Below are positions 9,811 to 57,231 of a stretch of DNA of 64,000 nt, one piece after another. The notes beneath the pieces were generated by a model, which had not been told where the DNA came from, did not search any database, and saw only the letters and a program-made list of their open reading frames with translations. The DNA lies in the IMG/VR virus record IMGVR_UViG_3300045988_115476; one strand, 5' to 3'. Every line of letters begins with the position of its first letter. Position 1 is the first letter of the stretch. This stretch comes from a virus. The position numbers and the translations under genes are program-made.

Positions 9811-12800
9811 TCATGCTATCATGCTAATTGACAAGAACTGAGACACCGAAGACGCCTCCTTGATTGTTCCTCGGAAGGCAAGCCGAGACCCGAATGCCGT
9901 GTCCACGTCCGCAGAATCGTAAGCCGCACACACACACGACACACCGCTACGCGCATTCGCGCTGTAGCCCGACCGATAGGACACACGGAACGGTGAATTA
10001 TTTATAAAGATGTCGTCGTAGTAGTTAGAGGTCTCTGATCCTCCGCCTTTTGCCGTGACAATATCCATGAACCTGCCATGAACAACATTTTTGGGATAGG
10101 TACTACCATACAACTTCGCGCCCTGGATCTGACGCTCCGTACCGTCAGGCATAACGGAACGCCAAATGTAATCAACCTTTTCTTTGTTGATATACACCTC
10201 AACCCACTCTGCTTTGTTTCCTTGCCAGTTATCATAACCCATACATACGGGCGATCCGATTGGTGTACGCACCTCGTCGTCTTCGTTTTTGAGAACATAC
10301 GCATTCGCATTCCGATACGAACCATTGCTGATAACAGGAGGCGTATCGCCATCCTTTGCGGTAGGCTTGGTGTCCTGCATACCCGTGGCGTCGGAAGCAC
10401 CTGTTGCACGGCTGGTTGAAGAAGTACCTGCGCCGCACGTTCCTTGACTATCGCGCTCGCCATACTTGGCAAAGAAGAGATTGCCAACATCCTTGTGCAT
10501 TTCCCAGTCTATCAACTGGAATCCCTCGCCACGGTTTCTTGCGTAAATTTTGAAGTCTTCGTAGGAGATATTACCAGTTGATTGCACGCCGCTGATGGAA
10601 TAGAGATAGTCGTCACGCAGCAGGGCCTCATAAACGCCGACGAGACATTCTTCATGCTCAACCCAGTCAGGCTCAATGGCCTCTATTCTGTCGCTCTTCG
10701 TAAGGAGGACATAATCAAATGGGGCATCATTGGCAATGGTGAATGCGAGCGTAACGGCATTCTTTGGTATGCTGGTAAAGCAATACATTCCGGCAATGAG
10801 ACCACTATCCGATGAAGCCTTCATGCGCTTAACGATCGTCCCGTTAGCATCAAGCATAACTGCGCCATACAAGGCAGACGGCAGTGACGGGTATCTAACC
10901 TGCTTGTACCCACTGATTTCGACAGTTACATAACTATCCGAGCTCATCACGGTTTCTGCCTCTGCAAGCGTTGTGTAATCAAGGTTTGCACGAACCGCAT
11001 ACCCCTTCTTTACGGTGAGGGATTCAAACTCTATTTTTTTGAAATCAAACGATGCGGGACACTTCTTGAGGGAGCTAAACAATGAGTACTTTTCCTTGTT
11101 GAAAATATCGTTGATACCCTTGTACCAATAATGCGGCTCTCGCATCATTACATCACCCATCTCACCCGTCAGCTTGGCGGGTGTAGCCTTTGTCACGTCT
11201 GCCGCATCTGCGAAGAAATTGCTATTCTTGTCGTGAAGTTGACAAACAGTAACCTCCTTCACGCCAGTCTTCTTCGTAAGGACACGATGGCGATTCGACA
11301 GAATCTTTGCGACATGACCACTCGGTACAAACGCCTTGTCATATTCGTAGCCCGTCTCATTGTCAAGATTGGAAATGTTGGCACTATCTGAGACACTATC
11401 ATCAAACTTGATCATAGTGTATTCAGGTTGGCTCACATTGAGCTCGGGATAATGAGAGACGTATGCAGCAAATGTATCGTCGTCAACGTAACGGGTGAGC
11501 CTATACGACCCCACGAGGGCGCAGGTGTCCGTATAACTTCCTCCCTCATCAACACCGCCAACGTTCATATACTTATCAAGCAATGCGCCGTCACCCTCCA
11601 TGTCAATACCCGTTATGCGGATTCTTTTGACATTGACGCACTTGTCAAGCAGCGTTTTCCAGTCAAGATTTGGACAGCCAGAGAACACAAACGTATTCAC
11701 ATTGGTGAAACTTTCAACTGAAAGGCCCGACGGGGTGAGCTTTGACAAATATTCCAGCCTCAGCGAAGTAATGGTACCAGGGAGATAGGCCGATGTGACG
11801 GGAGCGCCCTTCGCAAAGTTGACGCTCTCAACATTTGTGCCCCTTGCGTCAAGATACTCAAGCCTTGTCTGACTGGAAAGATCAATTTCTTTCGACGTAT
11901 TGCTACCCGTCTTGGCCTGCGACTGGTTGCGAAGGTTTATGCGCTTGAGAGACTTGCACGCATTCAGAACAAGCCACCATCCGGTAGAGCCAGTCCCAGC
12001 AGATTGCAAATTCAACTCACGCAGCACATCACACTTGCCGAGATCAAGGCCATTCTTCAAGTGATCAGCTGCGCCCGTCATGTCAAGCACGCGCATTCTA
12101 CTTGCTCCGTACATTCTCAACGGGTCATTGACTGTATATGCGCCATTGATGGTAAGCGTGGCCACCTCTCCCTCCTTGACAATTCCCGTGTTTTCGATGT
12201 TCGGGGAGTTGTTTGTACCATATCCGAAGGCATACACCTCGTTGGCCGTTATCTTTACGCTATCTGCAGCATCGGCAGCATTGCGGGAAATGTACATGTC
12301 AACATTGTCCGAAGTGAAGTTGCTCGTCCCATACTTAGCATCAAGCAATGCGAAACGATTCTTGATAAAGTACTCACGATGGGAGATGTTAGAACCCTGC
12401 AAGGCATAGATAAACGGCCACAACTTTCCATACATTACCTGAACGGCAGGCTTGATATATTTCAACTCGCCAGACTTGTTAAATGCACGGTCTGACCAAT
12501 GGCCACTTTGTTCCTTGTTAAACATGTTGAGCACACGCTCGTTGGTCATTACCTGCCTCAGCTTCGCCGCACATCGCTTCAAATCATCTTGCAGGTTAGC
12601 AAGCACCAAGTTCCACAACCAACTATCACGGCCCTCGAATGCGTACTTACTTGCCTCTGCGTCGTAAGTATCTCTATCCGTCGTATATACATATACAAGG
12701 AAGCAGTCGTTGCGTTTACCAAGCTGAGTGTCTCCGTCATAGTAGGTGATATACCATTTCAGTCCGTCCCATGTACGAAGCATCATGTTCTTTGCCCGTT

Positions 12801-54200: not shown

Positions 54201-54503
54201 ATGGAAAAAACCGTTATGAATGAGAGTGCAAAGAACAGAGTGTTGAACCCGAAGCTGGCCAAGGTGCTTGTCAGCCTCCACGCCGTCTATAAGGACTTCA
54301 CGGAAGAGACCGATCGGGCGCAGGGCGAATACGGCGTCCACCTAAGCAGCCGGGTAGATGACTTTGTGGAGCACTACAATGCCATGTGCGACGACATAAC
54401 CGACGCTATGGGCAAGATCATGGCCGTGGAGGTCAATAGCATAGAAGAGGACGACGAGAGCGGTCGCCAGGAAGAGGAGGCCACTACTTCAAGCCTCGAA
54501 TAG
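54201..54503 (+). CDS. hypothetical acidic protein (100 aa)
   Basis: ORF immediately before the gene-free RNA/repeat island; no motif recognised. Confidence 0.45.
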   Translation: MEKTVMNESAKNRVLNPKLAKVLVSLHAVYKDFTEETDRAQGEYGVHLSSRVDDFVEHYNAMCDDITDAMGKIMAVEVNSIEEDDESGRQEEEATTSSLE

Positions 54504-54542
54504 AATAGGGAAAGAGTTTTTGATTATTATATAAATCCATTT

Positions 54543-54572
54543 CCTGCTGGTTCGTGAGAATAGGCAGGTTTT
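54543..54572 (+). terminator. GNRA-capped terminator hairpin h1
   Basis: CCTGCT-GG-TTC-GTGA-GAA-TA-GGCAGG followed by TTTT. Confidence 0.55.
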
Positions 54573-54825
54573 CCCTTCAAGCCAAGAAGACATAGAACCT
54601 CGGATGACCCAGGGAGGGAGGCGCGCGGGCAATGTGCTCCCGCCTCCTCTTCCTTTCCTTTGGACAGGATAAACTTTTCCCTTCAAACCAAAAAGAGATA
54701 CAGGTTCTTGTAAAACCCGTGGGGGCGTGCGGGTCAGGTGTGCGTCCCCATCCTTTTTCCTTTGAACCGGACAAACTCAGATGCTTTTAGTACTGGTTAG
54801 TTTTTAGTTAATTGTGTTATTCCAT

Positions 54826-54858
54826 AACAAACCGTTCGCGAGAATAGTTAGTTCTTTT
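54826..54858 (+). terminator. GNRA-capped terminator hairpin h2
   Basis: AACAAAC-CG-TTC-GCGA-GAA-TA-GTTAGTT followed by CTTTT. Confidence 0.5.
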
Positions 54859-54883
54859 GTTTATGGTTAATTAAAAGTGTTCA

Positions 54884-54917
54884 GAGTTGGTTGCCCGCGA
54901 GGGTAGCCAACTTCTTT
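54884..54917 (+). terminator. GNRA-capped terminator hairpin h3
   Basis: GAGTTGGTTG-CCC-GCGA-GGG-TAGCCAACTT followed by CTTTC. Confidence 0.5.
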
Positions 54918-55009
54918 CAACGAGACTTCAACTGTTGCAGACCTACGACATACTCATAGTTAATACACATAGAAAGGTTTTGTTTTTTAGTTTCGAGTGA
55001 ATATTTTGC

Positions 55010-55046
55010 GGGGATGGCCGTCCGTGAGGATAGCAGCCCCTTTCAT
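55010..55046 (+). terminator. GNRA-capped terminator hairpin h4
   Basis: GGGGATGGC-CG-TCC-GTGA-GGA-TA-GCAGCCCC followed by TTTCATT. Confidence 0.5.
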
Positions 55047-55143
55047 TAGTCTTACGAATGATAATATTTGTACATCCCCAGCGGGGGGAATGCCATTATT
55101 CAATATAGTGTGGCTTTATTCACATTTTTGTGTGTCTTTTTTC

Positions 55144-55174
55144 CCCTGTCGTCCGTGAGGATAGCAGGGTTTTT
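55144..55174 (+). terminator. GNRA-capped terminator hairpin h5
   Basis: CCCTGT-CG-TCC-GTGA-GGA-TA-GCAGGG followed by TTTTT. Confidence 0.55.
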
Positions 55175-55256
55175 CTTTTCCTTCAAACCTACCCTACACT
55201 TAGAATCATCTGTAATGATGAGGTGTTTGGCCGTACCGAGCCCGCAAGGGCGTACT

Positions 55257-55296
55257 GGATGGGAGAGGGCACGTTCCTTTCCCATCCGCTTTTTCT
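55257..55296 (+). terminator. strong intrinsic terminator, preceded by a GCAA-capped hairpin at 55233-55255
   Basis: GGATGGGAGAGG pairs with CCTTTCCCATCC, followed by GCTTTTTCTG. Confidence 0.6.
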
Positions 55297-55497
55297 GACC
55301 GCCAGGCATCCCAAAATCATTCCTTCATGATATGGCAATCGTGCCAATATGGCCTCAACAATGGCCGTCGCCCTGCCCTTCCTGGCTCCCACCGATTCAT
55401 GTAACTATGTGGACGGAAGACGGGATGGTGATAGGCGCAAAAAGTAACTATCCGTAAGTAGCACTTCGCCCAAAATCTGCAAGGCAAACCGTATTGC

Positions 55498-55632
55498 AAC
55501 TGTTTCATAACTGTTGCAGAACCGTTTACAAGGCGTTTCAACACCTTTGTAAATAGTTGTGTTTTAGAAAGTTACAAGCCAATTACTGTTGCACAACTGT
55601 TTCAAACTGTTTGTAACTGTTTGCGAACCGTT
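55498..55632. repeat. eight helically phased AACYGTT boxes in two clusters (iteron-like)
   Basis: Box starts are at 55498, 55509 and 55520, then at 55584, 55595, 55605, 55615 and 55626, with 10-11 bp spacing. A related box lies at 54930. Confidence 0.65.
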
Positions 55633-55794
55633 TACGGGTGTGTTTTTGGGCAGGATTGCTTACAGACCAATAGTTAAGCAATATTGCCGATTTTGCGTTA
55701 ATCTGTTAGTTTTCTCCCAGTTTCTTGGCGTGTAACCACCATGTAACTGCGGGGGAAGTCGAGGACTGATATACAAACTTTAACACTTGTGTTA

Positions 55795-55865
55795 TTATTG
55801 TACTTATAACTCGGGGCAACACCAAATATGTGCCGTAGTCTTAACTTTTGTTATTGTACTTATAA
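55795..55865. repeat. 15-bp perfect direct repeat TTATTGTACTTATAA x2
   Basis: Copies at 55795-55809 and 55851-55865, within roughly 28-bp similar blocks, upstream of the promoter at 55935. Confidence 0.6.
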
Positions 55866-55934
55866 ACGAAGCGTAACACATTGAGCATCAAATATTTACG
55901 GCGTTTTTATTTGGAAGTTTGGTATCAAAACGCT

Positions 55935-55942
55935 TATCTTTG
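55935..55942 (+). promoter_or_regulatory. Bacteroides-type -7 box
   Basis: TATCTTTG followed by CA, the same extended box as at 53118. Confidence 0.5.
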
Positions 55943-55949
55943 CACCGAC

Positions 55950-56295
55950 AATTCTTTTCATTAAGTCCTGCTTGGGGTTGCGGCGGAGGAGATCACCCGC
56001 TGCTTCCCAAGGCCCTGCCAAGTGGATTTGGTGCATCCTTCGTGGAGGGTAGCGGGTTCGACTCCCGCCAGAGCCGCCAGGACAAAGTGAGAGAATAACT
56101 TGGAAGTCGCGCTCCATGTCTCAAATAGGATTAAGTCCATCTTTATAGGTAACACTATATATGCCCCTATCCTGAGTTCGTTGTGCGCGACACGAGCAAA
56201 GGATGGGGGATTTTCGTCCCATGAATTTAGGATGTATTTTCCAGTAACTAAGTTATGCATTTTTCCTGCTGGTTCGTGAGAATAGGCGGGTTTTT
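55950..56295 (+). ncRNA. roughly 340-nt promoter-to-terminator noncoding leader containing a tRNA-like 3' module
   Basis: No credible ORF. Contains GCGGG-TTCGACT-CCCGC-CAGAGCC-G-CCA (56052-56079) and ends at hairpin h6, just upstream of ORF 56332. Confidence 0.4.
56265..56295 (+). terminator. GNRA-capped terminator hairpin h6 (near-identical to h1)
   Basis: CCTGCT-GG-TTC-GTGA-GAA-TA-GGCGGG followed by TTTTT. Confidence 0.55.
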
Positions 56296-56331
56296 CAAAA
56301 GAATACAACATTAAACAAAATATAGAACGAA

Positions 56332-57231
56332 ATGAAAAGAATGACAAGAAAAGAAGCTGCCGAGTATCTCGGCGTTTCAATCAGCACTATCTCCAACTAC
56401 ATGGCAGAGGGTGTTCTTGGTGGTTTCAAGGATCACAAAAACCTCATCTATGTGAATGCTGAGGACGTGGAGAAGTATGCAAAGCAATACCGCATGATTC
56501 CTGCCAGCGAGAAACTGCTCCAGGAGAAGCTTGATGAGTTGGAACGGTTGCGCAATGAGGCAAAAGAAGAGATTGCCGAGTTGCGGAAAGGATTCCTTGG
56601 CCCTACTTTGTCTCGTTTCAATCATCCAGCCATAGGATGGGCCATTATGGCCTTGAACAGGATTGTAGGAGACGTCCATATTCCGCGTAGAGAAGAAAGT
56701 GTGTTGCTTAGAGTGTTCGTAGGTGAAGATTTGGTCGATATTGCCGAAGAAAAAGGCGTGACGATAGAACGCATACGGCAGATAACAATCAGCGCCTGCC
56801 GACACCTCTGCGACAAAGAGCAAGAGTTAATGAAAGACTTAAAGAGCAATGCCAGGCTATTGAAGGAGAATGAGGCCCTTTGCCATGATGTAATCGTTCT
56901 CCAAGAATTTATCAAAAACATACCCGGCGTAAAATTTGAACGGGAGCTCCTTACGCCTCCTGCCTTGTTCTACAAGAAAATATCTAATTGTGGATTCAGC
57001 GTCCGAGTAACAAATAGTCTGACCTTCGGAGGTATTGAGACCGTAGGCGACATGATAACGAAATTCAACAGCTTTCAGCACATGTTGGACATGAGTGGTC
57101 TTGGCCGGGTAAACCTCCGTGAGATTGAAGCCTTCATGAAGGAGAACCATCTGGTGTTCCGAAGAAAAAACGAAGGCTACAAGGAGTACTTTGCCCGATT
57201 GACCAAATACGGAAAGTATAAGAAATGCTGA
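56332..57231 (+). CDS. composite transcription regulator: N-terminal HTH, sigma-70 region-4-like segment, RpoA alpha-CTD-like C-terminus
   Basis: MTRKEAAEYLGVSISTISNYM; ESVLLRVFVGEDLVDIAEEKGVTIERIRQITISACRHL; FSVRVTNSLTFGGIETVGDM...GLGRVNLREIEAFMKE. Confidence 0.55.
   Translation: MKRMTRKEAAEYLGVSISTISNYMAEGVLGGFKDHKNLIYVNAEDVEKYAKQYRMIPASEKLLQEKLDELERLRNEAKEEIAELRKGFLGPTLSRFNHPAIGWAIMALNRIVGDVHIPRREESVLLRVFVGEDLVDIAEEKGVTIERIRQITISACRHLCDKEQELMKDLKSNARLLKENEALCHDVIVLQEFIKNIPGVKFERELLTPPALFYKKISNCGFSVRVTNSLTFGGIETVGDMITKFNSFQHMLDMSGLGRVNLREIEAFMKENHLVFRRKNEGYKEYFARLTKYGKYKKC

Follow-up and report, generated by a model that had tools for sequence, protein, structure and literature searches.

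A widespread family of GNRA-capped RNA hairpins in gut Bacteroidales phages and its possible role in marking RNA 3' ends

Intrinsic terminators with GNRA or UUCG loops are stem-loops followed by a U-rich tract after genes, and the hairpins described here resemble them in the T-rich tails of about two thirds of the family. Unlike terminators, however, the family conserves its inner 14 nt, which include a destabilising N·A mismatch and a G·U pair. The RNase III sites of phage T7 (R0.3, R1.1 and others) are likewise intergenic phage hairpins that combine a conserved, irregular centre with variable stems; they punctuate polycistronic RNA, and the upstream product keeps a protective hairpin as its 3' end, frequently 20–40 nt ahead of the next start codon. 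A T7 site spans at least about 20 bp and is cleaved inside the hairpin, whereas our hairpins comprise 12–14 layers and the known cuts nearby, by RNase P and hatchet ribozymes, fall beyond the stem. The boxB hairpin of the lambda nut site is also small, with a GNRA-type loop and a conserved top that suggests protein recognition, and some of our hairpins have U/A-rich tails loosely like boxA. In contrast to boxB, a 5-bp stem under a GNRA-like pentaloop that occurs twice per genome at operon starts, the family places a tetraloop on a 3-bp stem, followed by an irregular region (G·U, then N·A) and a long outer stem, and is found in up to 8 copies per array; no N-like protein accompanies it in the loci analysed.

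Like the RAGATH motifs (RNAs associated with genes associated with twister and hammerhead ribozymes; RF03146, RF03152, RF03159 and others), our hairpins have no assigned function. They share phage non-coding arrays with hammerhead, twister, hatchet, RAGATH-7 and RAGATH-9 RNAs, but no RAGATH or other Rfam 15 model matches them. Theta (HDV-like) ribozymes lie downstream of phage tRNAs and cleave at the tRNA 3' end (PMC10879173). They share with our family the tight association of a small RNA element with tRNA ends in gut phage tRNA arrays; our hairpin, however, lies upstream of the tRNA 5' end, is too small for an HDV-like fold and stands 19–122 nt from the preceding tRNA. The idea that it forms part of an HDV-like or theta ribozyme was rejected, as the hairpin is followed by only 2–5 nt and its spacing from the preceding tRNA is variable. 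No such hairpin is mentioned in the theta ribozyme study (PMC10879173) or in the phi14:2 transcription paper, and a literature search by sequence and topic found no description of the family.

Six of these hairpins lie in a gene-free island of the window, by which we mean the whole 64-kb stretch of viral DNA that was analysed; its phage is temperate and tape-measure-bearing. The sequence-only reading had seen no credible ORF between 54504 and 56331, and the ten small ORFs inside this interval indeed had no Pfam or PHROGs match. It had also described six hairpins of one architecture, each of which folds as described. They are given here with their scores under the covariance model R1 and their folding energies:

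54543..54568, + strand: h1, inner stem TTC/GAA, GTGA loop, then TTTT; 45.4 bits; -13.2 kcal/mol
54826..54853, + strand: h2, TTC/GAA, GCGA loop, weak outer stem with an A·A mismatch; 33.1 bits; -5.2 kcal/mol
54884..54913, + strand: h3, CCC/GGG, GCGA loop; 31.7 bits; -22.0 kcal/mol
55010..55040, + strand: h4, TCC/GGA, GTGA loop, bulged, imperfect outer stem; 28.2 bits; -15.2 kcal/mol
55144..55169, + strand: h5, TCC/GGA, GTGA loop, then TTTTTCTTTT; 36.0 bits; -16.2 kcal/mol
56265..56290, + strand: h6, near-copy of h1, then TTTTTC, 41 nt 5' of the ATG of gene 56332–57231; 43.4 bits; -12.5 kcal/mol

The motif GYYCGYGAGRRTAG has six exact matches in the window, all on the + strand (54550, 54834, 54893, 55020, 55151 and 56272), compared with a mean of 0.31 in shuffled windows, none of the 100 shuffles reaching six. 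With filters off, R1 recovered the same six hairpins at 28.2–45.4 bits (E 1e-10 to 1e-5), the runner-up in the whole window scoring 14.5 bits. The inner-stem variants noted earlier, TTC/GAA in h1, h2 and h6, TCC/GGA in h4 and h5 and CCC/GGG in h3, can be read directly from the sequence, and the near-identity of h1 and h6 amounts to 97% over 33 nt. An N/A mismatch had been attributed to all six; it holds except in h3, whose N position is occupied by a U that forms a pair with the conserved A. All six tails are T-rich (TTTT, (C)TTTTG, CTTTC, TTTCATT, TTTTTCTTTT and TTTTTC). A recurring tail, TTTTCCCTTCAARCC, said to follow several units, was found 3' of h1 and, loosely, of h5, while a third copy adjoins no family hairpin.

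The island contains further features, all on the + strand:

54569..54777, + strand: duplication of two tandem units, 102–106 nt each
54797..54812, 54856–54871 and 54987–55002, + strand: three copies of the repeat TTWGTTTnnrGTKAAT
55233..55288, + strand: GCAA-capped hairpin and strong intrinsic-terminator-like hairpin, then CTTTTTCTG; -33.4 kcal/mol for the pair
55910..55942, + strand: promoter-like site of the Bacteroidetes type, TTTG-N21-TATCTTTG, found by eye
56011..56079, + strand: tRNA-like module with acceptor GGCCCTG/CAGAGCC and T arm GCGGG-TTCGACT-CCCGC, then G and CCA

The tandem units end in GC-rich terminator-like hairpins (54611–54654 and 54719–54751) with T-rich tails. These had been taken for degenerate family copies at 54617–54660 and 54720–54765, but R1 gives no match there and they are unrelated to the family. 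Copies of the repeat TTWGTTTnnrGTKAAT begin 33–37 nt 5' of the cores of h2, h3 and h4, which makes the duplicated unit about 55 nt long, more than the hairpin alone. The GCAA hairpin (55233–55255) and the strong terminator seen earlier are both present, the latter with boundaries at 55256–55288, and the pair is likely to be the end of the h1–h5 array transcript. The promoter-like site, assigned by the Bacteroidetes consensus, is perfectly conserved in four relatives. The tRNA-like module scores 22.3 bits with the Rfam mascRNA-menRNA model and 16.6 bits with that of the tmRNA T arm; ARAGORN called no tRNA there or anywhere else in the window. This module is a possible RNase P processing signal 5' of h6. 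Iteron-like repeats are present at 55497–55635. The 45 nt 5' of each of h1–h6 were compared with the window in search of antisense targets and gave nothing past chance complementarity of 10–12 nt, and no recognisable structured RNA or gene was found directly 3' of h1–h5. In close relatives (L015 and L147–L150) the island is almost identical, the sole changes being loop changes that keep GNRA. That the island holds several short RNA units, as first proposed, is plausible.

The six window hairpins are members of a large RNA hairpin family in gut Bacteroidales phages. We found the module, in more than 200 distinct copies, in viral-contig loci that fall into at least 84 distinct groups at the DNA level, with the cultured phage crAss001 among them; it is thus not a paralogous set private to one phage. 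The single crAss001 copy (positions 1878–1909) lies 5 nt 5' of tRNA-Glu, near the start of a long + strand block. A copy at this place is kept in crAss001 and about six more lineages with the same core and wholly different outer stems; it is orthologous and has been retained over time. Searching the whole window with Rfam 15 gave no match at the gathering score, and the Rfam search proposed for 54500–56330, run on 54300–56500, matched no hairpin at E up to 10. Rfam models also gave no match to the hairpins in 12 related loci, and the island with the 24 kb around it showed no sequence similarity to 50,697 phage records. Apparently, the family is uncatalogued.

In the module, an outer stem of 6–9 bp of free sequence is followed by a Y-G pair, then by an N that faces an invariant A, and then by a G·U pair; the top is a 3-bp YYY/RRR stem under a GNGA loop, mostly GUGA. 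Across 102 distinct copies, 97.9% of cells are paired, against 69% after shuffling, double changes occur in 10 of the 11 pairs, and the G·U pair is retained in 101 copies, a core conservation that is partly circular, both collections of copies having been seeded with exact core words. Of 77 unique copies found with one 16-mer, 60 have at least six contiguous, mutually different outer-stem pairs, compared with about 5% in mismatched controls. A census of GNRA-capped hairpins, which corrects the circularity in part, found the G..UA layers in 89 of 187 non-seed hairpins (the full census criteria gave only 20 hairpins on shuffled sequence); among these 89, 79% have a GUGA loop and 87% a G after UA. 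Inner stems in the census covary as UUC/GAA, UCU/AGA, UCC/GGA, CUU/AAG, UUU/AAA, UAU/AUA and CCC/GGG. The earlier claim of selection on RNA structure is therefore upheld for the family by its pairing, double changes and retained G·U pair. Hairpin length peaks at 28–30 nt and the stack has 10–14 layers (mode 12–13; peak 13–14 in non-seed members), whereas an RNase III site has about two helical turns of double-stranded RNA around an internal loop. Compared with SRP RNA domain IV, 5S loop E, the sarcin-ricin loop, group II intron domains V/VI, Y RNA and CRISPR repeats, the hairpin fails each at conserved positions.

G·U and U·G pairs exist solely on the strand of the flanking genes and tRNAs, which bears on whether the element works as DNA, be it as a single-stranded hairpin for recombination, replication or transposition or as an N4-type hairpin promoter. 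Such a role is extremely unlikely. One-orientation arrays, adjoining iteron-like repeats in the window and a spread over many unrelated phages, as of a mobile element, would agree with it, but the strand that carries the wobble pairs is the transcribed-sense one, and every hairpin has the same orientation as the tRNA or gene beside it. Moreover, integron attC and REP/RAYT sites conserve the foot of the stem, vary at the centre and have an associated integrase or transposase; here the inner stem and loop are conserved, the foot is free and no transposase or HUH gene recurs in the neighbourhood. The N4-type promoter was rejected on the wobble pairs and because no phage RNA polymerase was detected in the window of this temperate phage.

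The hairpins are positioned closely against whatever RNA follows them. Among copies near a same-strand downstream tRNA, 48 of 54 lie -3 to 11 nt from the tRNA 5' end (median about 4 nt), and 25 of 26 hairpins between two tRNAs are closer to the downstream one. In L003 and L123, a hatchet ribozyme starts at the hairpin 3' end, which places its cleavage 2 nt past the stem (site as located in PMC6561176), and in L128 a weak twister-P1 match begins at the hairpin 3' end. In L052 and L040, where a hairpin abuts tRNA-Gln, a hammerhead cut lies 33–42 nt 5' of the hairpin, a layout that would release a discrete RNA of 65–80 nt. Ribozymes and associated motifs in related loci include hatchet (L003, L097 and L123), RAGATH-1 hammerhead (L060, L110 and L128), type III hammerhead (L039), RAGATH-7 (L003 and L097), RAGATH-9 (L003) and a sub-threshold twister-P1 (L060). 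This recurrent ribozyme neighbourhood of the RAGATH type belongs to the related loci; in the 64-kb window, Rfam 15 found no ribozymes accompanying the hairpins.

Could the hairpins simply be ordinary intrinsic terminators that stop host RNA polymerase, their core reflecting common descent and a handy, stable GNRA nucleus with no factor involved? T makes up 60–68% of positions +1 to +4 after the stem, and a T tract directly follows it in 64% of 131 unique copies (at least four T in the first 5 nt in 38%, three in 6 nt in 26%; the remaining 36% have none, or a tRNA or ribozyme instead). A co-directional stop codon lies 11–60 nt 5' of the hairpin in 33 of 82 copies, h1 with its TTTT starts 40 nt past the stop codon of ORF 54201–54503, and a copy at L113 2137 with a T6 tail sits between convergent genes. 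Against this, at least 48 copies stand at the tRNA 5' end and others abut hatchets, with no space for a U tract or promoter; at least a quarter of members lack room for a U tract, a tRNA or ribozyme beginning 2–11 nt on. Copies abutting a tRNA or hatchet are read through, because no promoter fits in the gap, and h2 and h3 are only 30 nt apart, so that these hairpins do not mark the end of a transcription unit. While h1, h3, h5 and h6 fold at -12.5 to -22 kcal/mol and h4 reaches -15.2 kcal/mol with bulges, h2 at -5.2 kcal/mol is too weak for efficient termination. The most conserved features, the N·A mismatch and the G·U pair, weaken the stem, and the core is retained in at least 84 locus groups despite complete turnover of the outer stem. 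The motif, searched as an 18-mer, has 26 matches among 185,579 cellular genomes; it is rare there and therefore not the host's usual terminator. We consider the ordinary terminator doubtful. The specialised shared terminator of the sequence-only reading stands in part: it suits the two thirds of copies with a T tract, but not those that are read through, nor h2.

The same tight gap to a downstream tRNA, hatchet or twister-like RNA, set beside the variable gap to the upstream tRNA, would also be expected of a leader or insulator for the downstream RNA, which might sequester upstream sequence and so let the next tRNA or ribozyme fold and be cut properly, stabilise a 5' end or act as a nut/put-like loading site for a factor that acts on RNA polymerase or on translation of the following gene. 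An ATG lies 16–42 nt 3' of the hairpin in 20 of 77 copies. Other copies are found in the space between divergent genes, or 40 nt 3' of a canonical promoter and 27 nt 5' of an ATG (L107, L044, L031 and L037); in these, the hairpin is a 5'-leader element, with a useful upstream RNA not evident. The single crAss001 copy near the start of its long block agrees with this role, as do tails such as TTCTTTGAAA and CTTTCAAC, which loosely resemble boxA. Yet such a tail is impossible, and absent, where a tRNA starts 2–5 nt on, and T enrichment after the stem and copies at convergent gene ends are unexpected for a pure leader. Insulation has no need of a conserved core, no N-like or NusG-like gene recurs, and nothing recognisable as a gene or a structured RNA directly follows h1–h5. 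A leader or insulator thus keeps a modest chance, although it is not the reading we prefer. A fixed host promoter upstream was rejected, TAnnTTTG boxes occurring in only 10 of 131 copies at scattered distances. An EM motif search in the 40 nt 5' of the hairpins gave only a weak AT-rich pattern of 4–5 bits, and the enrichment of the k-mers TTAGTT and GTTAAT upstream is real but diffuse.

Residence in tRNA arrays raises a further alternative, a mimic of the tRNA minihelix, whose stack of about 12–14 layers and tetraloop would be seen by RNase P or RNase Z as an acceptor/T-arm helix. The hairpins would then punctuate polycistronic RNAs, in the way that stem-loops stand in for tRNAs in the mitochondrial 'tRNA punctuation' model. 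The 28–30-nt length peak corresponds to 12–13 stacked layers, the median hairpin–tRNA gap is like the short mode of tRNA–tRNA gaps (0–19 nt), and the commonest core, GGTTCG...GAAT, is reminiscent of a T arm. This mimicry is nevertheless very unlikely. An RNase P minihelix substrate has a 12-bp coaxial helix, a T loop and a 3' RCCA; the hairpins are compatible in helix length alone, with no 7-nt T loop and a U-rich tail in place of RCCA. Non-seed members peak at 13–14 layers, the UCU/AGA, CUU/AAG and CCC/GGG variants are unlike a T arm, and neither ARAGORN nor the Rfam tRNA model matches the hairpins.

The reading we favour, with a confidence that falls a little short of even, is that the hairpin works at the level of RNA, where it marks and caps a 3' end that forms immediately downstream, its inner part probably being bound by a protein. 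The family, its covarying structure, its strand and its placement against tRNAs, hatchet ribozymes and T tracts are observed; from these we infer termination, cleavage and protection at the hairpins: in the transcript, the hairpin would serve as a punctuation element, with a 3' end formed a few nt after it. This end could arise by intrinsic termination at a short U tract, which fits about two thirds of copies, or by a cut 2–11 nt downstream, for which either RNase P, acting at the tRNA 5' end, or a ribozyme of the hatchet or twister-like kind would be responsible. The hairpin would then stay on the upstream RNA as a protective 3' cap, its inner module presumably contacting a host or phage protein. 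In the window, h1 would close the upstream operon, h2–h5 would punctuate a series of short non-coding units up to the strong terminator, and h6 would end a transcript begun at the promoter near 55910–55942 while also lying within the leader of gene 56332.

Several observations count against 3'-end punctuation. The leader-type copies have no upstream RNA of evident use, and the 16–42 nt spacing to a start codon equally fits a role for the downstream gene. Recognition by a factor, proposed earlier, is suggested by the conserved inner module; however, when 1,998 ORFs from the loci were clustered, no partner protein family recurred, the best being present in just 10 of 75 locus groups. The most frequent clusters near hairpins are an integrase, DUF4494 and proteins without assigned function. 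The antiterminator that had been envisaged as a partner found no candidate among them, no N-like or NusG-like gene recurring.

A more speculative possibility, which we regard as unlikely, is that each hairpin serves as the conserved 3' handle of a small phage RNA, and that these RNAs form a new class with a variable single-stranded 5' part, bound by a dedicated host or phage protein through the GUGA/G·U/A module and acting as guide-like or decoy ribonucleoproteins in Bacteroidales infection. RNase P, RNase Z and self-cleaving ribozymes would free such RNAs from arrays of tRNAs and ribozymes or, as in this island, they would be made as short terminated transcripts. If true, this would be the first functional explanation of why self-cleaving ribozymes cluster in gut phages.

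The family would bring a well-defined structured RNA to the non-coding arrays of gut phages, which are poorly understood, and its one common geometry links termination and tRNA processing with hatchet, twister and hammerhead ribozymes. For annotation, the motif flags phage non-coding RNA islands and cautions against labelling each such hairpin a terminator. The copy in cultured crAss001 makes the family open to direct experiment. To our knowledge, Bacteroidales conduct their RNA biology without Hfq and without Shine-Dalgarno-led initiation. If the inner module binds a protein, it would represent a new RNA–protein interaction controlling the fate of phage RNA in these bacteria.

The gene-free island (54504–56331) is flanked by an ORF at 54201–54503 on one side and a gene at 56332–57231 on the other. 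It lies in a phage or prophage of the Bacteroidota type, temperate and with a tape measure protein (2047 aa), whose window also encodes a terminase, a portal and a major head protein, as well as a tyrosine integrase with a SAM_5 domain, a resolvase, a Bro-N/Ant protein and two DNA methyltransferases. We detected no phage RNA polymerase in the window. None of the ten small ORFs in the island matched Pfam or PHROGs, in line with the sequence-only reading that it holds no credible ORF. The island contains the following features.

54543–54568, + strand: hairpin h1
54569–54777: tandem duplication of a 102–106-nt unit (two copies), each beginning TTTTCCCTTCAARCCAARAAGASATA and ending in a GC-rich hairpin whose tail is T-rich
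54826–54853, + strand: hairpin h2
54884–54913, + strand: hairpin h3
55010–55040, + strand: hairpin h4
55144–55169, + strand: hairpin h5
55233–55288: GCAA hairpin and strong terminator, previously proposed and both confirmed by folding
55497–55635: at least five iteron-like repeats, AACTGTTKCA / TAACTGTT..AACCGTTTAC
55785–55865: two direct repeats, ACTTKTGTTATT..GTACTTATAA, spaced 56–59 nt
55910–55942: promoter-like site of the Bacteroidetes type, TTTG-N21-TATCTTTG
56011–56079: tRNA-like module with acceptor GGCCCTG/CAGAGCC and a canonical T arm, then G and CCA
56265–56290, + strand: hairpin h6

The six hairpins were all recovered where they had been described. The degenerate core GYYCGYGAGRRTAG has exactly six matches in the 64-kb window, all on the + strand (54550–56285), compared with 0.31 expected in shuffled sequence, and none of 100 shuffles reached six. 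A covariance model of the family (R1), trained on the six window hairpins and 30 diverse copies from other loci, scored h1–h6 at 28–45 bits when the whole window was searched with all filters off; no other window site exceeded 14.5 bits. In each, folding gave, from the outer stem inwards, a 1x1 N/A position, a G·U pair, three base pairs and a GYGA loop. The mismatch and wobble pair attributed to every hairpin hold in general, except that in h3 the N is a U paired with the A. The near identity of h1 and h6 amounts to 97% across 33 nt, and h2–h4 have in common a duplicated ~55-nt module including the repeat TTWGTTTnnrGTKAAT. The supposed degenerate copies at 54617–54660 and 54720–54765 do not belong to the family; they are GC-rich, terminator-like hairpins closing the units of the tandem duplication. 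The two units may represent paralogous small RNAs or small-peptide genes.

Four close relatives carry the same set of six hairpins, which differ among them by loop changes only, with GNRA retained. Across these relatives 55926–56225 is invariant and 55700–55925 variable; the direct repeats fall within this sole island part that differs. The iteron-like array beside the hairpins may be a replication origin or operator array. The tRNA-like module forms the 3′ part of the RNA downstream of the promoter-like site; ARAGORN made no tRNA call for it, and it matched mascRNA-menRNA weakly (22 bits). Candidate identities are an RNase P processing signal in the style of MALAT1/mascRNA, a Y-RNA-like molecule and an attachment-site tRNA fragment.

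The observation is confirmed, and the family is bigger than first thought. A scan of viral contigs with the exact word GGTTCGTGAGAATAGG gave at least 120 loci. Among the matches listed, 60 of 77 unique copies have an outer stem of at least six contiguous pairs, all differing in sequence, compared with about 5% of mismatched outer-stem controls; R1 found at least 149 copies in 100 of the loci listed, often clustered on a single strand (up to eight in one locus, six in another, five to six in a third). A second scan for the UCU/AGA variant, with the exact word GGTCTGTGAAGATAG, added at least 54 unique hairpins. Combined, the scans yielded at least 268 loci in at least 105 DNA-level groups, at least 84 of them with viral contigs, so that the set is not a paralogous one private to a single phage. 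In cellular genomes (one genome for each of 185,579 species) an 18-mer version had only 26 matches, about 21 of which form the hairpin, the majority in Bacteroidales assemblies. This makes the motif in essence a feature of the phages of that host group, though one not strictly limited to phage DNA, since two Prevotella assemblies (L134, 3298–3315; L135, 3497–3514) carry the hairpin with a T run (T9 and T6, respectively), 94 nt ahead of a gene for glycyl-tRNA synthetase. No Rfam 15 family was matched by h1–h6 or by the hairpins of 12 related loci, and no description of the family was found in the searchable literature.

The proposed covariation was borne out by 102 distinct aligned copies, in which 97.9% of cells pair, as against 69% after shuffling, double changes occur at 10 of 11 pairs and the G·U pair is retained in 101. 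To lower seed bias, a census of GNRA-capped hairpins (3-bp top, two unconstrained layers, six or more outer pairs) left out seed-containing copies; it yielded 187 hairpins compared with 20 in shuffled sequence. G..UA layers occur in 89 of the 187. In these 89, N is G in 46, U in 25, C in 9 and A in 9, GUGA accounts for 79% of loops and U·G or C-G for 87% of first outer pairs; covariation in the inner stem is wide, with pyrimidines always on its 5′ side and purines on its 3′ side. The core G-UGA-RRR-UAG also spells two in-frame stops, UGA and UAG, with one purine codon between them, probably by coincidence, because 21% of loops are GAGA, GCGA, GGGA, GAAA or GUAA. UAG or UGA is reassigned in many gut phages.

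In phage tRNA arrays the hairpin lies directly 5′ of a same-strand tRNA, at a gap of −3 to 11 nt in 48 of 54 cases (median ~4), equal to the short mode of tRNA-to-tRNA gaps. The preceding tRNA is 19–122 nt away, and hairpins between two tRNAs are closer to the downstream one in 25 of 26 cases. Bacteroides phage crAss001 (MH675552) has a single copy (1878–1909, 30.1 bits), 5 nt 5′ of tRNA-Glu and preceded by a canonical TTTG/TAtcTTTG promoter, tRNA-Gln, tRNA-Arg and a T10 run. The orthologous tRNA-Glu hairpin of some six other lineages retains the core with a wholly replaced outer stem. Also encoded by crAss001 is gp96, a TROVE (Ro60-like) protein. Helix length and array position agree with a tRNA-minihelix mimic cleaved by RNase P or Z, which is nevertheless very unlikely, as the hairpin has neither a T loop nor RCCA.

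Ribozymes adjoin the hairpin as well. Hatchet ribozymes do so at three loci (L003, L097 and L123), and because they cleave at the 5′ end of their P1 stem (PMC6561176), the cut would fall 2 nt past the last hairpin pair. At another locus (L128) a weak, sub-threshold twister-P1 match (23 bits) starts at the hairpin 3′ end. At two loci (L052, L040) a type I hammerhead cuts 33–42 nt upstream of a hairpin that lies 2–3 nt 5′ of tRNA-Gln; the L052 phage contig also has a circularly permuted tmRNA match (12111–12325, RF04321, 65.6 bits, above threshold). RAGATH-7, RAGATH-9 and RAGATH-1 hammerhead RNAs occur in the same arrays. Two one-strand, non-coding arrays of about 2–4 kb on phage contigs carry RAGATH-7, RAGATH-9 and hairpin then hatchet (L003, 171–3932), or RAGATH-7 and hairpin then hatchet (L097, 6723–8870).

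Elsewhere, positions +1 to +4 after the stem are 60–68% T, followed by an A-rich stretch. A set of 131 unique copies divides into 64% with a T tract, 11% with a tRNA no more than 15 nt away, 4% with a hammerhead core no more than 45 nt away and 21% lacking all three. By crude ORF calls, a co-directional stop codon lies 11–60 nt upstream in 33 of 82 copies and a co-directional ATG 16–42 nt downstream in 20 of 77; convergent and divergent gene contexts both occur.

That the hairpin functions at the transcript level is indicated by its wobble pairs and by the orientation it shares with genes and tRNAs; a DNA-level site, which the strand and conservation patterns contradict, is highly improbable. 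Where only a few nucleotides separate the hairpin from a following tRNA or ribozyme, there is no room for a promoter and the hairpin must be transcribed through. The earlier idea of a specialised shared terminator is partly right. Ordinary terminators, which explain neither these read-through copies nor core conservation, are an improbable account. A leader, insulator or nut-like element acting on the downstream RNA would suit the tight spacing and the copies in 5′ UTRs and divergent regions; it fits T tracts and convergent-gene copies poorly, and we consider it unlikely.

We infer that one geometry fits most cases, namely an RNA 3′ end formed immediately 3′ of the hairpin, whether through termination at a short U tract, through RNase P or through a ribozyme cutting at its own 5′ end. 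The hairpin would then stay on the upstream RNA as its 3′ cap, and this geometry leads us to favour, tentatively and at slightly below even odds, an RNA-end or punctuation module. The mismatch, wobble pair and loop are the most conserved parts yet weaken the stem, which argues for probable recognition by a protein; no partner was identified among the proteins encoded around the loci. The formation, protection and binding of such ends are all steps that we infer. In the island, h1 would close the upstream operon and h2–h5 would punctuate short non-coding units in a run ending at 55256–55288. Hairpin h6, 41 nt upstream of the start codon of gene 56332–57231, would end an RNA starting near 55948; it also lies within the leader of that gene. 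The 299-aa product combines HTH_17 (excisionase-like), sigma-70 region 4 and RNA polymerase alpha C-terminal-like domains, which is unusual for a phage regulator.

The element is best filed as a conserved terminator or processing hairpin, probably protein-recognised and absent from Rfam. It is tied to the ribozyme and tRNA arrays, themselves unexplained, that gut phages carry, and its function is open to testing in the cultured phage crAss001.
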